Of a stretch of DNA of 44,443 nt, positions 9,977 through 38,933 are shown in pieces. The first letter of the stretch is position 1. Each line of letters opens with the position of its first letter. The notes below the pieces were generated by a model. That model made no database searches. It was given only the letters and a program-made list of their open reading frames with translations, and was not told the origin of the DNA. The position numbers were made by a program, and so were the translations under genes. The DNA is from Escherichia phage mckay, in sequence record NC_073073.1. One strand, written 5' to 3'.

Positions 9977-10441
9977 ATGAAAATTTTACAAGAAGAGAAA
10001 AATTACTGGGCCGCGCAATGCCTCGAAGCCCGCGAGCAAGCCGAACGGGCGAACGCGCTGGCGGATACCTACCTGGCGAGCTATGAAGGCGAGGAGAAGG
10101 CGCGCAAGGAATTAGAGGAGCGCTTCGATCTGCTTTTCGAATTGATGGGGATTATGCAGCGCACCGGATATACAACCAGCGTTGCACTAAACCGCGTCAC
10201 GGCTGATGCGTTGCGGGAGCACTGTAAACGTGCGGAGGAGTACGTGCGCCCGAAGGGCCGCCAGTCTTCGATCGCCAGGAAAGACCTTGTGCTTATGGCG
10301 TGGCGCAACCCTACAAACGGCAGATTCTACCCGGACGCGCGCCCGCTTAGCGCCGAGGAATCAAAGCGCGTGCAACGCGTCATCAAAAAAGGCGATAAGA
10401 TCCCACTTTATGCGATAGACACCGACCATGACGAAGAATGA
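9977..10441 (+). CDS. Hypothetical protein (154 aa)
   Basis: ORF adjacent to the upstream stop; predicted coiled-coil N-terminus; no recognisable motif. Confidence 0.55.
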   Translation: MKILQEEKNYWAAQCLEAREQAERANALADTYLASYEGEEKARKELEERFDLLFELMGIMQRTGYTTSVALNRVTADALREHCKRAEEYVRPKGRQSSIARKDLVLMAWRNPTNGRFYPDARPLSAEESKRVQRVIKKGDKIPLYAIDTDHDEE

Positions 10442-34094: not shown

Positions 34095-35480
34095 TTAGTA
34101 GAAGTCTACAGTTGGAACAACGGCGATTGGGCGAATCACTGGGAACAGGTGCGCAATTGGATAGCCCGCGGCATCGTTCATGTGGTCCACACCGGCGGTT
34201 TTATCCGGCTCGCCTTTCTTCAGGTCGTAAACCTGCTGTTCCAGACATTTCGCTAGTGTAGGGCATTTATCCAGGTTGACAAAATACTGGCGCACACCCT
34301 TCGAGTTGCACATCATCGTATTCATCGCGATCAATCGGTCTTTCACAGGTGGGTTAACGCTGTCGTATTCCACCTCGAAGCCCGCGTCTTCCAGTTGCGC
34401 AATATCGGACGACGATGCGTTAACAGTCTTACGAGACTTGCCACTGCTATCCGGGTAAACGACGACCCGACCGGCAGCACAATGATCGGGGTAGCGCTCC
34501 TCGATCGCCTCAATCATAGCCGGGGTGTCGAACAGGTCTACGAATTCATCCACTGCGTGAATCTCGTCGCGGAACTCCTTGTTTTCGGTGATGCGCTGCC
34601 GTCTGACGTACACGACCGCCGCCATCTTCGTGACGTTAAAGTCCATACCGATAATCAGCGTGTCGTCCGGTTGCACTTCTTCGGTGCTGGCGTTCTCCTC
34701 GCGGTTGAACATCTTGTACACCGCGCCCGACGTAAGGTTAACAAACAGGCCGTTCAGGTACGCATCAATCAGGTTAGCCGGGTACTGACTGCGCAGCGTG
34801 TCGATAAAGTCCGCCGGTAAATGGTGGTTGTCCGTGGTCTTCGCCCGGATCAAGCGTTTCTGGTTGTCTTTCTCCACCTCGAAAATTTGGTACATCGCCC
34901 GGTAGCCTTCAGGCGTTGACACGATGACAAACTGGCGGACGAAGCCAGCACGCAGACGACCGAGCAATTTGTGATATGCCGCCAGCGCGACGTCTTGCTT
35001 AGTAGTGTCGAATTCATCGGCAACAATCCACGCGGCGTTGACCCCGATCAGGCGGGTATAATTCTCCATTGATTCACAGATAACGCGGGTCCATTTGCCT
35101 TTCACCAGCACGTTATAGATCTTGTCCTGCTTATTGAACTTCCACCGGAATCCAGCCTCATCAAACGCCTTTTCCAATTCCGGGTACATGATTTTGACCA
35201 GGAGTGGAATAGTCGGTTCGGTCACAATGCCGTCATAACCAGGGTTAAGTGTCAGAAGCTGGATTACCTTACGGGCTGCGACCCACGACTTTCCACCACC
35301 GAAGCCGGAACACAGGCCGAGGATTTTAGTCTTCGTGTCACGCAGTAGTTCGACCTGGTGAGGAAGGCAATCAGGTTGGTAAAGGCGGACGGCCTGCGCA
35401 ACGCGTGTCGGTCGCGGCGGTCGGTTTCGCTTTGCGATCGCGCGTTCAAGGGCGCGATGTTCTGCCGCATAGTTACGCAT
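34095..35480 (-). CDS. Terminase large subunit
   Basis: 461 aa; Walker A GLCSGFGGGKS, Walker B-like VADEFD, C-terminal nuclease-like region; start overlaps the TerS stop. Confidence 0.9.
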   Translation of the reverse strand: MRNYAAEHRALERAIAKRNRPPRPTRVAQAVRLYQPDCLPHQVELLRDTKTKILGLCSGFGGGKSWVAARKVIQLLTLNPGYDGIVTEPTIPLLVKIMYPELEKAFDEAGFRWKFNKQDKIYNVLVKGKWTRVICESMENYTRLIGVNAAWIVADEFDTTKQDVALAAYHKLLGRLRAGFVRQFVIVSTPEGYRAMYQIFEVEKDNQKRLIRAKTTDNHHLPADFIDTLRSQYPANLIDAYLNGLFVNLTSGAVYKMFNREENASTEEVQPDDTLIIGMDFNVTKMAAVVYVRRQRITENKEFRDEIHAVDEFVDLFDTPAMIEAIEERYPDHCAAGRVVVYPDSSGKSRKTVNASSSDIAQLEDAGFEVEYDSVNPPVKDRLIAMNTMMCNSKGVRQYFVNLDKCPTLAKCLEQQVYDLKKGEPDKTAGVDHMNDAAGYPIAHLFPVIRPIAVVPTVDFY

Positions 35481-36030
35481 TAATCACCCTGGCCTTTGCC
35501 GGCAGGTTCCACTACGACGTCGCCGTTATCATCTTCGTCGTCATCCAGCGGCACATCGTCGCGGACTCCGTGGTTTGCTTTAAGCAGGAACGTAGCGAAG
35601 CCAGCCGCGATGGTCACGCCGCCAGCTTCCATCAGGAAAGTTTTCTGCAACTCCATAGCATCCGCCATCGCCTCGGCGAACTCCTCATGTGCTCGCGCCC
35701 AGCGATACAGGCAAGCTACGCCCACACCGATTTCCGCGGCAAATCGACCGAAGGTTGGCATTTTGTTGCGGGGGATTACTTGCGCAGCGCCTTTATCGGA
35801 GTAGTTGACCTGCCAGGCGTCGGCGTCGGCAAAATAGCGGCGAAGCTGGTCGCAGTAAACGGATCTGTAGTCAGTAGGGCGTCCACATTTGCCGCCTTTA
35901 CGGCGCTTGCCGTACTCGATTTCAGGTCCGAGATTGGTATGCTCGGTTTGCTCTCCTGGTTTACGGCGCGGGGTAACTGCTACTCGTCCGTCCAGTTTGG
36001 CGCGTCGGCCCTTAACTTTGATTTCTGCCA
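35480..36030 (-). CDS. Terminase small subunit, putative
   Basis: Start taken at ATG 36030 (MAEIKVKGRR); GRPTDYRSVYCDQ...PTFGRFAAEIGVGVACLYRWARAHEEFAEA resembles small-terminase HTH regions; acidic C-terminus; directly upstream of TerL. Confidence 0.6.
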
Positions 36031-36101
36031 TGATATATGCCCTTTTGTTCATATGCGCCGACCATCGGCAACATAGGAGACGGCCCTGCCATCTAAGGGG
36101 G

Positions 36102-36132
36102 ATTATAACAGGCACAAAAAAGCCCACCAAAT
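36102..36132 (-). promoter_or_regulatory. Sigma70-like promoter upstream of the terminase genes (perfect -10 TATAAT)
   Basis: On the - strand TTTGGT-17-TTATAAT, about 70 nt upstream of the TerS start. Confidence 0.35.
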
Positions 36133-36148
36133 CGGCAGGCTATGCGGT

Positions 36149-36361
36149 TTAAACGTCGCGCCCGTAGTATCGGGTTAACATGCTTTGTACTTCGCTTATC
36201 GCGCCTTCTGTGTAGCGTATTTGCGACAGTATCTCGATCCTCTCGTCCATCGACATTCCGACTGCCGCTGCCGTTCGTTCAAATCGGCGCAAGCCTTCGA
36301 GTTGTTTGCGTAGTTCTTTCAGGCGGGTGGCCTGCGTGCTCATGAATACTTGTCTGATCAT
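36149..36361 (-). CDS. Hypothetical small protein (70 aa)
   Basis: ORF whose start overlaps the upstream stop (ATGA). Confidence 0.5.
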   Translation of the reverse strand: MIRQVFMSTQATRLKELRKQLEGLRRFERTAAAVGMSMDERIEILSQIRYTEGAISEVQSMLTRYYGRDV

Positions 36362-37500
36362 TTCAACATTTCCGGGCTAATGGTTAAGCGCGCTACTTCT
36401 CCGTAGTTGGCGCTATAGGTGATGACGTTTGCGCTGCGACCGGACATCCAACCGCCACGACTGGCGTAGGCGTCTTTCGCTGCGAGCGTCCTGTGCTGTT
36501 CAACAATCATGTTGCGGGATTCAACAATCTTCTGGTGGTGCAAATGGCCTACGTGAGCGTAGCTGTATTCGCTCGACCCGAACGCCTGTCTGAATTTAGC
36601 GATCATAACCTGCTCGATAGCATCGAATCGCGCTTTGTGCCCGTGGTGGAAGAATAGAGTTGTCTTACCGTGCTGCACCATTTTGTAGACGTCCGGGGAC
36701 GTATCCACATCGACGCGCGGATCGTTCTCGTACAGAGTATTGAACATCTCAGCCAGCCAAATCATACCCGACTCGTCATGATTTCCCTGGACGATTAGCA
36801 GTTTGACTTTGTGGTGTTTTTGCAGCGCCAGTTCGACGACGTTGCGCACCATGCGAATCATGTAGCGGACCAACTTCTGGTATCGGGTATCTGCGTCCAG
36901 GATATGACCACTGGCTGGGGTGACGGCATCGAGGCTATCAAAATGCGCCATATCACCGAGGATATTGATTACGGCAGTTCCTGCGTCTGGTGCGCGGGCG
37001 AAGGCTTCGACAAACCAGCGGTAAAACAGGTCTTCGGCAATCGCCATATCCCAGTCTTCGCCAGTCTCCTCGCCCCAGGCCAACATGCCCAGGTGGAAGT
37101 CGGACACGGTATACAGGTTGAGCAAGTCGAGCGCCTTGATCGGTACTGGCGGGGCGTTTACTGGCGCTGCCGGTGTGATTTCGCTGTTCATACCCTCGAC
37201 AACAGCGCGCATAGCTTCGAGTTGGCGCTCCTTGTCCTGCTCGGTGATGACCCATGACATGACCTCCTCGCCATTGCCGCGCACCAGGGCGGAGACACGC
37301 TTAACGCCAAAACCATCGGCAACGCGCTTACGGATTACGGCATCGTTACCGTGACCAATACCTTTTTTCGATAGGCGGGCTTTGCGCATGTAGACATTTC
37401 GGAGGGATAGGCCGTACTTCTTCGCAATATCTTTCGATGTAGTGCCGGATTGCAACTCGGCGATCAATTGCTCGTCGGTGATTTTAGTTTGCGGGTGCAT
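36358..37500 (-). CDS. HTH-fused calcineurin-like metallophosphoesterase
   Basis: 380 aa; N-terminal HTH-like TSKDIAKKYGLSLRNVYMRKARL; metallophosphoesterase motifs DFHLG, GDMAHFD, GNHDE, HHGH, GHLHH in canonical order. Confidence 0.7.
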   Translation of the reverse strand: MHPQTKITDEQLIAELQSGTTSKDIAKKYGLSLRNVYMRKARLSKKGIGHGNDAVIRKRVADGFGVKRVSALVRGNGEEVMSWVITEQDKERQLEAMRAVVEGMNSEITPAAPVNAPPVPIKALDLLNLYTVSDFHLGMLAWGEETGEDWDMAIAEDLFYRWFVEAFARAPDAGTAVINILGDMAHFDSLDAVTPASGHILDADTRYQKLVRYMIRMVRNVVELALQKHHKVKLLIVQGNHDESGMIWLAEMFNTLYENDPRVDVDTSPDVYKMVQHGKTTLFFHHGHKARFDAIEQVMIAKFRQAFGSSEYSYAHVGHLHHQKIVESRNMIVEQHRTLAAKDAYASRGGWMSGRSANVITYSANYGEVARLTISPEMLK

Positions 37501-37705
37501 ATTAATTCACTTCCAGATTATGGGATCGAAGACAATATACCACTGTCCCTATGGCGGCGGGCTATAGCAATTCGCAAATAACCATACCGATGAATGCTGA
37601 GGCGGACCAGATCGCCAATACCCAAATATCATTACGTGCCATAGTGTAATACTCCTCTTGTTGATTGGTCGCAGTATGGTCAGATTGTTGGTTGCAAGTC
37701 AAGCA

Positions 37706-37731
37706 ATAAAAAGCCCGGATAGTTCCGGGCT
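37706..37731 (-). terminator. Rho-independent terminator after the lysis cassette
   Basis: On the - strand GCCCGGA-acta-TCCGGGC hairpin followed by TTTTTATT. Confidence 0.6.
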
Positions 37732-37738
37732 TGCGAGG

Positions 37739-37922: not shown

Positions 37923-38414
37923 TTATGCTGCGTTTCGCCCGATTCTCTCGGCAACGTCCCACTGCTTACCATCGAATAGCGCCTGTCTGCCGATTGCACG
38001 ACGGACAAGCCCCTTGAGCACTACCCCGCCTTGCTTGCGGAATTGTGGCAGTGTAGCCCGTACCTTCGCCCAGTCACCCAGGCGGATCGCATCGTCGAAA
38101 TCACCCGCGACGTCGTCCGGCATGATCGGACCTGGACCAGCATTGATAACCAGGTCCACCAGCGCGTCGAATTGCGCCTGATTGATGCTCGGGTGTGCGT
38201 ACTTGTTCACCCAGTTTTCGGCATACGCCACGTCGCGCTTGAGTAGCTCCAGTGCTTCCGCACGGGTAATGCTCCGCGGCGGATTAGTGCCGGTGTGACC
38301 ATAGCCCCAGGTATACAGGCCGCGGGCCTGCTCTTTCTTAGTCGCGAAATACGGCACTGGGCTGAATTGCTCCCATGCTGCCGTAAATCTTAGACCGTTG
38401 TCACTGAATCGCAT
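37923..38414 (-). CDS. Endolysin (phage lysozyme, GH24-like)
   Basis: 163 aa; N-terminal region with E...TWGYGHT(G) resembles the GH24 lysozyme signature; adjacent to holin-like genes. Confidence 0.7.
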   Translation of the reverse strand: MRFSDNGLRFTAAWEQFSPVPYFATKKEQARGLYTWGYGHTGTNPPRSITRAEALELLKRDVAYAENWVNKYAHPSINQAQFDALVDLVINAGPGPIMPDDVAGDFDDAIRLGDWAKVRATLPQFRKQGGVVLKGLVRRAIGRQALFDGKQWDVAERIGRNAA

Positions 38415-38646
38415 GCTTTACCCCATTCAAAACAGCATTACGCAGCGTGCGCAATGCAAACAGCCAGATTAACGCGGTCCAGGTGGTGTCTGATACGTCT
38501 CCTGTTTGCAACAATCCGATAACGCAGACCATCGCCGTTAGCAGATATAACACCCGGCCTAAAATGCCATCCTGGACGGACGGCGCATACACGTTAAACA
38601 GGGACGAAGCCCCTATGATAACAAACAACAGGACGGAGATAATCAT
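38401..38646 (-). CDS. Small membrane protein (holin/antiholin-like)
   Basis: 81 aa with two predicted TM helices; start overlaps the upstream holin stop (ATGA). Confidence 0.5.
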   Translation of the reverse strand: MIISVLLFVIIGASSLFNVYAPSVQDGILGRVLYLLTAMVCVIGLLQTGDVSDTTWTALIWLFALRTLRNAVLNGVKHAIQ

Positions 38647-38933
38647 TTTGCGCCCCCCGGAAGTCGGAACGACTCAATAGTCTCCCTGATCCGGGCGGCT
38701 ATTGGCATCCAGAAGATGGCAGTTACGAAGCCCAACCCGGCAACAGTGCGCTCGCCAGATAAGCCAGCCCACTCGGCAATAGCTGGCGCACCAAATATGG
38801 CACACAAGAAGCCGACCACGATATATAAAACGAAGTTTAGCGGCCCTTTCGTAGCCTCGCCATGAATGCGAGCGCCAACGAAGCCCCCCGCGAGACACGC
38901 GAGGGCGAATAGCCACTCGTTTAGCTTATCCAT
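38643..38933 (-). CDS. Holin, putative
   Basis: 96 aa; multiple hydrophobic helices with charged C-terminus; first gene of the lysis cassette. Confidence 0.55.
   Translation of the reverse strand: MDKLNEWLFALACLAGGFVGARIHGEATKGPLNFVLYIVVGFLCAIFGAPAIAEWAGLSGERTVAGLGFVTAIFWMPIAARIRETIESFRLPGGAK

Follow-up and report, generated by a model that had tools for sequence, protein, structure and literature searches.

The genome of Escherichia phage mckay (record NC_073073.1; a single stretch of 44,443 nucleotides, analysed at its full length and called the window below) is that of a Dhillonvirus-like E. coli siphophage, which shares 90-94% DNA identity with 130 records in a megablast search. Between its lysis cassette and the terminase genes TerS and TerL, it carries a gene for a protein in which a helix-turn-helix (HTH) segment is fused to a calcineurin-like metallophosphoesterase (MPE) domain. 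A first-pass annotation made from the sequence alone had reported this location, the HTH-like segment and five MPE motifs. All motif strings quoted there are present, the coordinates coincide exactly with those of the open reading frame (ORF), and the location is borne out; the only omission was the strand, which is the minus strand (Table 1). The gene is preceded by a Shine-Dalgarno-like sequence (GGAAG), and its G+C content (0.542) equals nearly that of the window (0.545). The gene, its MPE nature and the HTH are already found in public annotations, and PHROG 704, treated in the literature as a core 'DNA repair exonuclease' of T1-like phages, is the catalogue entry for the family; the protein matches it with an E value of 6.3e-161 (residues 5-380 versus profile positions 2-390 of 390). 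Proteins 95-99% identical to it occur in approximately 147 phage records, where they are named hypothetical protein, calcineurin-like phosphoesterase, phosphoesterase, DNA repair exonuclease, HTH luxR-type domain protein, or transcriptional regulator.

The HTH-MPE protein is a modular protein. In the AlphaFold model, which was calculated with a 101-sequence alignment (pLDDT 92.9, pTM 0.79), it is composed of a genuine tri-helical HTH, a short helix (residues 53-58), a β-hairpin followed by a long helix, a linker of lower confidence, and a compact MPE domain. The three-helix fold with its basic recognition helix is that of HTHs of the LuxR/GerE, sigma-70 region 4, and resolvase types. The HTH of the window protein itself scores below the Pfam thresholds, the N-terminal region of homologues passes the models Sigma70_r4_2, GerE, HTH_1, HTH_8, HTH_23, and HTH_28, and longer relatives possess two HTHs. 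Among 101 homologues with 31-81% identity, conservation is lowest in the HTH, and a Campylobacter phage homologue, which scores 263 bits against the hidden Markov model (HMM) of the family, lacks it and begins at the hairpin motif STLY..G..LQWVK. Since the HTH is variable or absent while the hairpin motif is kept, the hairpin-helix and the MPE domain can be regarded as the core of the family and the DNA-binding head as swappable. S70, G77, and W83 of the hairpin are conserved, and no fold match in the PDB covers the hairpin-helix part.

Table 1 Features of the HTH-MPE locus in the window and position of the three-gene block in other phages
Feature	Position	Strand	Remarks
Two holin-like genes	38401-38933	minus	upstream of the MPE gene
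Endolysin gene	37923-38414	minus	PHROG 7; upstream of the MPE gene
Small lysis-associated ORF		minus	PHROG 11068; upstream of the MPE gene
Intrinsic-terminator-like hairpin with U-tract	37711..37732	minus	between lysis cassette and MPE unit
Candidate gene for a 26-residue hydrophobic peptide (MARNDIWVLAIWSASAFIGMVICELL)	37562..37642	minus	read from the sequence; would come first in the unit
HTH-MPE gene	36358..37500	minus	ATG-initiated ORF of 380 codons (380 residues); full-length PHROG 704 member
Tri-helical HTH	37366..37476	minus	residues 9-45; recognition helix 33-45, Arg/Lys-rich
β-Hairpin and long helix	37180..37320	minus	hairpin residues 64-88, helix 90-107; family-specific
MPE catalytic domain	36361..37125	minus	residues 126-380; nothing C-terminal to it
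MPE motifs I to V			DFHLG 134-138; GDMAHFD 182-188; GNHDE 239-243; HHGH 285-288; GHLHH 318-322 (residues)
Insert VTPxSGHxLDAD	36889..36924	minus	residues 193-204; family-specific; between motifs II and III
70-residue ORF	36149-36361	minus	PHROG 20931, a PHROG of unknown function; downstream of the MPE gene
Intrinsic-terminator-like hairpin with U-tract	36121..36141	minus	between 70-residue ORF and TerS
TerS	35480-36031	minus	start M34 as in phage slur05; downstream of the 70-residue ORF
TerL	34095-35480	minus	downstream of TerS; followed by the portal gene
HTH-MPE/HAD phosphatase/dNMP kinase block	L006 5159-6315; L007 5160-6226; L012 5220-6278		loci of other phages

The active site is strictly conserved. 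D134, H136, D183, N240, H241, H286, and H321 are invariant among the 101 homologues, H186 is conserved in 97% and H319 in 96% of them. Within the insert that separates motifs II and III, T194 is invariant and L201 and D202 are conserved to at least 94%, and R206 just past it is conserved to 91%; the insert may form a substrate-binding loop. Compared with the orthologue of the Dhillonvirus relative slur05 (89.9% nucleotide and 95.8% amino-acid identity), the ratio of nonsynonymous to synonymous substitutions is 0.05, with constraint acting on each of the three protein parts. The low ratio together with the invariant metal ligands indicates that the gene is, judged from its sequence, a functional enzyme gene. 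A LuxR- and sigma region 4-type HTH, the name 'transcriptional regulator' in some database records, and the position immediately upstream of the late genes TerS, TerL, and portal (with a terminator-like hairpin in between) would also fit a protein that acts primarily as a transcription factor, e.g., as a regulator of late or packaging genes, and in which the MPE domain serves as a sensor or has a moonlighting activity. Such a role is quite unlikely, as the HTH is the part that varies and can be missing, whereas the catalytic residues are invariant; moreover, T7-like and N4-like phages use their own RNA polymerases and have the MPE gene among genes of DNA metabolism, and only short repeats at chance level turned up when the surroundings of the gene in the window were searched for operator-like DNA.

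With its DxH, GD, GNH[DE], H, and GHxH motifs and its MPE β-sandwich fold, the catalytic domain belongs to the calcineurin-like superfamily. The HTH-MPE family is a divergent one without a dedicated Pfam model: Metallophos and Metallophos_2 score 20.2 and 22.7, and thus below their gathering cut-offs of 21.5 and 27, respectively, and Metallophos is detected at E<0.01 in only 25 of the 101 homologues. Foldseek assigned the MPE fold with a probability of 1.0 at low TM-scores of about 0.4, with Mre11, Rv0805, and the DP1 subunit of PolD on top. In the fold comparison, the highest values were obtained for PolD DP1 (15.8), S. aureus SbcD (15.1), and T. maritima Mre11 (15.0), followed by LpxH (13.8), MJ0936 (13.5), Rv0805 (12.2), and PP5-type protein phosphatases (about 9). 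When a profile of the MPE domain was searched against the PDB, the only MPE sequences recovered were those of Mre11/SbcD and of the 'Nuclease MPE' of P. putida (E 0.018-0.4), the alignment pairing the DxHLG, GDLLH, GNHD, and GHxH motifs; Thermotoga Mre11 has SDWHLG and GDLLH where the window protein has DFHLG and GDMAH. In the updated T1 record, a 99% HHpred match to SbcD (4LTY) was noted by its depositors. In an hhalign comparison of the family profile with the single sequence of E. coli SbcD, only motif III was aligned. A PDB search with the single window sequence matched nothing except designed armadillo-repeat proteins, which are spurious. Taken together, the affinity to the nuclease clade is consistent but weak.

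The first-pass annotation had named a DNA-directed nuclease or phosphatase and an enzyme degrading host signalling nucleotides as possible functions and had suggested SbcD/Mre11, lambda phosphatase, and cyclic-nucleotide phosphodiesterases for structural comparison. The first possibility is the part that is supported, as the nearest folds and the sequence-level PDB matches are those of nucleases, the DxHLG and GDxxH motifs are those of Thermotoga Mre11, and the N-terminal HTH modules are swappable or duplicated. A phosphatase of the lambda type is not supported, since both the signatures of PPP-type protein phosphatases such as lambda phosphatase and NinI (GDxHG, GDxVDRG, GNHE) and a close fold similarity to them are absent. 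Of the class III cyclic-nucleotide phosphodiesterases (CpdA, Rv0805), Rv0805 ranks below the nucleases in the fold comparison but is among the top Foldseek matches. An anti-defence phosphodiesterase, which would destroy cyclic mono-, di-, or oligonucleotides used by the host for immune signalling, has little probability. Nothing was found that favours it: a conserved and swappable DNA-binding HTH is of no obvious use with a small-molecule substrate, the sequence-level PDB search showed no phosphodiesterase, the PADLOC defence models gave no match, and the gene is a core gene syntenic with DNA-metabolism genes rather than a resident of variable accessory regions.

The fusion and the position of the gene had been considered non-standard, which the distribution of the family does not support. 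As many as 2,075 phage records share the architecture (tblastn), and HTH-MPE is a core gene of Dhillonvirus and of the Drexlerviridae. In the tblastn search, homologues were found in Jerseyvirus-like Salmonella phages (about 75% identity), a T7-like Pectobacterium phage (50%), a Yersinia myovirus (45%), Drexlerviridae including T1 (ORF16) and Webervirus (about 45%), siphophages of Rhodobacter and Ruegeria (31-38%), and phages of Vibrio, Campylobacter, and, N4-like, Roseovarius (about 30%). Homologues are also present in alpha-, beta-, gamma-, and deltaproteobacterial genomes, where flanking genes for terminase, endolysin, HNH, NinB, and tail chaperones identify them as prophage genes. At 50% identity, the homologues from an exhaustive HMMER search fall into 4,683 clusters, almost all of them with a length of 360-420 residues. 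The family is thus very large and is present in the model phage T1 and in many therapy-candidate phages. Database and literature searches revealed no solved structure and no biochemical or genetic experiment for any PHROG 704 member, and nothing functional was found in searches on the metallophosphoesterase of Drexlerviridae, on SbcD of T1, and on host DNA degradation by T1. Likewise, CRISPRi-ART and phage Tn-seq essentiality screens gave nothing on Dhillonvirus, Drexlerviridae, or phosphoesterase. A paper on PUA-Cal-HAD proteins turned out to be unrelated to the HTH-MPE family.

The usual home of the MPE gene is the end of the DNA-metabolism region, often abutting lysis or packaging genes. 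In T1, it follows the genes for a helicase, a Holliday-junction resolvase, and Dam and is followed by an HNH gene and then the lysis cassette; in the N4-like Roseovarius phage, it follows those for dCMP deaminase, dNTP pyrophosphohydrolase (dNTP, deoxynucleoside triphosphate), and ThyX; and in a Campylobacter phage, the order is resolvase, two small ORFs, ligase, and MPE. In the T7-like phage PP99 (Gajwadongvirus), the gene lies between an exonuclease/endonuclease VII gene and genes for a HAD phosphatase, a deoxynucleoside monophosphate (dNMP) kinase, and a ligase; Webervirus has MPE, HAD phosphatase, dNMP kinase, and then the lysis genes; and the Yersinia myovirus vB_YenM_281 has lysis genes, MPE, HAD phosphatase, dNMP kinase, and portal. 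In T4-like Campylobacter phage F367_149 (locus L009, 3848-4801), a gene annotated as 'putative recombination endonuclease' belongs to the PHROG 704-type family (263 bits against the family HMM) and not to the gp47/SbcD type; its product lacks the HTH, and no gp46-like gene is adjacent to it. In a 2026 pangenome study, a persistent exonuclease-holin-endolysin-spanin module was described for 508 of 522 Drexlerviridae genomes; the genes most frequent after the exonuclease were those for polynucleotide kinase and dNMP kinase, which were interpreted as nucleotide-supply genes (PMC13164509).

Placement of the MPE gene next to TerS in the window is a local version of this general arrangement and therefore provides no evidence for a role in packaging. 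The packaging function proposed initially, i.e., that of an accessory nuclease of the terminase which aids pac-site cleavage or end processing, is in our view highly improbable: in T1, Webervirus, PP99, and the N4-like and Campylobacter phages the gene lies apart from the packaging genes in early or middle clusters for replication, recombination, and nucleotide metabolism, far from the terminase in the T7-like, N4-like, T1-like, and Campylobacter phages, and even in the window terminator-like hairpins part it from TerS.

Neighbouring genes were compared by gene calling and clustering in 258 loci representing 15 MPE lineages at 60% identity. The only position-fixed neighbours common to several lineages are a 162-residue protein at position +1, which is a PNKP-type HAD phosphatase domain (PF25109, PHROG 415), and a 193-residue protein at position +2, which is a dNMP kinase (PHROG 139). 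In two large metagenomic lineages, no neighbour reaches a quarter of the loci; the genes around MPE are varied there and comprise endolysins of at least eight different families as well as spanins, endonuclease VII, kinases, methyltransferases, and TerS. The enzyme is thus without an obligatory partner. A conserved small downstream partner protein was also considered and rejected; small coupled ORFs are common in many lineages but mutually unrelated, and the 70-residue ORF of the window is not homologous to the small ORFs 3' of the MPE gene in other lineages.

The block consisting of HTH-MPE, a stand-alone PNKP-type HAD phosphatase, and dNMP kinase occurs in the siphovirus Webervirus, the podovirus PP99, and the myovirus vB_YenM_281, which implies that it moves as a module between phage types. 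Recurrence of this trio also speaks for an end-healing phosphoesterase, which would clear 3'-phosphate, 2',3'-cyclic phosphate, or blocked termini of broken DNA or RNA and would cooperate with the PNKP-type 3'-phosphatase, the kinase, and a ligase in repairing DNA or RNA that host nucleases have cleaved. In PP99, the trio is directly followed by a ligase gene, and in the Campylobacter phage one precedes MPE; end-healing domains of the MPE type exist in Pnkp of Clostridium thermocellum and of the mycobacteriophages Omega and Cjw1. We nevertheless consider this function unlikely; the 3'-phosphatase, kinase, and ligase genes adjoin the MPE gene in Webervirus, PP99, and the Yersinia phage but do not lie beside it in the window or in T1.

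In the window, the MPE gene forms part of a small unit that is bounded by two hairpins with the features of intrinsic terminators and consists of a candidate ORF for a hydrophobic peptide, the MPE gene, and a 70-residue ORF, which is translationally coupled to the MPE gene by an overlap of its ATG with the stop codon of the latter (ATGA). The hairpin towards the lysis genes has a folding energy of -16.4 kcal/mol (z = -4.06; none of 200 shuffled sequences folded as well), and the one towards TerS an energy of -15.4 kcal/mol (z = -2.59). Given these flanking hairpins, the MPE/70-residue unit appears to be transcribed separately from both the lysis and the terminase genes. The two hairpins are alike at their 3' ends (…GGGCTTTTT). 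The 26-residue candidate, which corresponds to a 46-residue ORF with TTG start (37562-37702) in the program-made ORF list, has a strong Shine-Dalgarno sequence (GAGGAG) 9 nt upstream and is not part of the slur05 annotation. The 70-residue ORF is restricted to Dhillonvirus-like loci among the 261 loci analysed; its product looks helical or coiled-coil-like by eye. For TerS, the program-made list gives a TTG start at 36130 (35480-36130), and both the PHROG match and the slur05 orthologue place the true start at M34 (36031), which leaves an intergenic region of 117 nt containing the second hairpin. Elsewhere in the window, a 154-residue ORF on the plus strand (9977-10441) matches PHROG 10530 'DNA ligase' over its full length; this label may be unreliable, as the protein is short for an ATP- or NAD-dependent ligase.

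From fold affinity, active-site conservation, and genomic context, we infer DNA as substrate, a nuclease chemistry, and a physiological role in phage DNA metabolism. The protein would be a binuclear metallo-nuclease that has the structural type of Mre11/SbcD/DP1, acts alone, and is tethered by its HTH, a proposal to which we assign an even chance. In such an enzyme, the N-terminal HTH would keep the protein on double-stranded DNA, the family-specific β-hairpin and helix would connect it to the compact MPE domain, and the two-metal site (D134/H136, D183, N240/H241, H286, and H319/H321) would hydrolyse phosphodiester bonds of the DNA. The enzyme would act without a Rad50/SbcC ATPase or any other conserved partner and outside the packaging machinery. 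The likeliest activities are degradation of host or otherwise unprotected DNA and trimming of DNA ends or intermediates; replication and recombination of the phage would thereby be provided with nucleotides and substrates.

The family may thus represent a Rad50-independent, HTH-guided variant of the Mre11-like nucleases. If this is true, it would be a minimal way of building such an enzyme, and a nuclease without partner might explain host DNA degradation or the processing of replication intermediates by T1-like and related phages. T1 mutants with a defect in the degradation of host DNA have been described in older work. A further-reaching and rather doubtful possibility is that PHROG 704 constitutes a distinct Rad50-independent class in which HTH and β-hairpin stand in for capping domain and ATPase partner, and that it provides the function for breakdown of the host chromosome or unprotected DNA that feeds nucleotide salvage in T1-, Dhillon-, and Jersey-like and many other phages; on this view, the gene would recur next to HAD phosphatase, dNMP kinase, and lysis genes because DNA is converted via dNMP to dNTP in a timed pathway. 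Work on the analogous mycobacteriophage enzyme suggests that the success of a phage against host defences can depend on nucleases of this kind.

Among the known systems, Mre11, SbcD, and gp47 of T4 differ from the window protein in several respects. In the AlphaFold model, the latter has neither a capping domain nor a region for binding of Rad50/SbcC, and no SbcC/gp46/Rad50-like ATPase was found among the non-structural proteins of the window, in the slur05 annotation, or among the conserved neighbours in the 258 loci. Motifs III and IV are separated by 46 residues, compared with approximately 100 residues in E. coli SbcD, and the insert between motifs II and III is specific for the window family. 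The family HMM scores 6.1 bits on T4 gp47 and 1.6 bits on E. coli SbcD, and both proteins match PHROG 100, whereas the window protein gives no hit to it; its PDB profile hits are marginal (E 0.018-0.28). MPE/PdeM of P. putida (ligase-associated, PDB 6NVO) is likewise a stand-alone MPE nuclease without Rad50 partner, and its sequence matches to the window family are weak (E 0.4 in the PDB profile search and E 0.28 for TIGR04123).

The MPE proteins of cluster-A mycobacteriophages (Bxb1 gp47, L5 gp54, and A10ZJ24 gp48) form a different sequence family, PHROG 221. Bxb1 gp47 lacks both the HTH and the β-hairpin and scores only 4.3 and 6.6 bits against two HMMs of the window family; with no homology detectable by HMMs or PHROG assignment, it can be regarded as a functional analogue only. 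It also serves as directionality factor of a serine integrase (PMC1470463), a setting from which the Dhillonvirus relative slur05 differs, as it has no annotated integrase. In the RefSeq record of Bxb1 (NC_002656; locus L299, 6876-7788), gp46 is labelled 'site-specific recombination directionality factor' and gp47 'metallo-phosphoesterase', which looks like an annotation slip, as gp47 is the protein named directionality factor in the study cited. PolD DP1, the archaeal proofreading exonuclease and one of the nearest folds, possesses an OB-fold and assembles with DP2 and PCNA, and neither feature is present in the window protein. A DP1-like function in editing, in which the protein would support the replicase of the phage by 3'-5' proofreading, has been proposed for Bxb1 gp47. 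For the window protein, this has a very low probability: T1, which uses the host replicase, keeps the MPE gene although the 24-48 kb non-structural part of its genome has no annotated DNA polymerase, the AlphaFold model shows no OB-fold or polymerase-binding domain, and polymerase genes are not among the conserved neighbours in the 258 loci.

The closest counterpart is ORF16 of T1 (AAP49983.1) in PHROG 704, to which the window protein is 45% identical over residues 4-379 and which scores 420 bits against the family HMM. T1 ORF16 and the Dhillonvirus, Jerseyvirus, and Webervirus orthologues have the same architecture of HTH, β-hairpin with helix, and MPE domain. Nothing essential distinguishes the window gene from this family, of which it is a member. 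Only the local gene order differs, the MPE gene being located between lysis genes and TerS in the window, whereas in Drexlerviridae it is followed by an optional gene for SH3, HNH, or HAD phosphatase plus dNMP kinase and then by the lysis genes.

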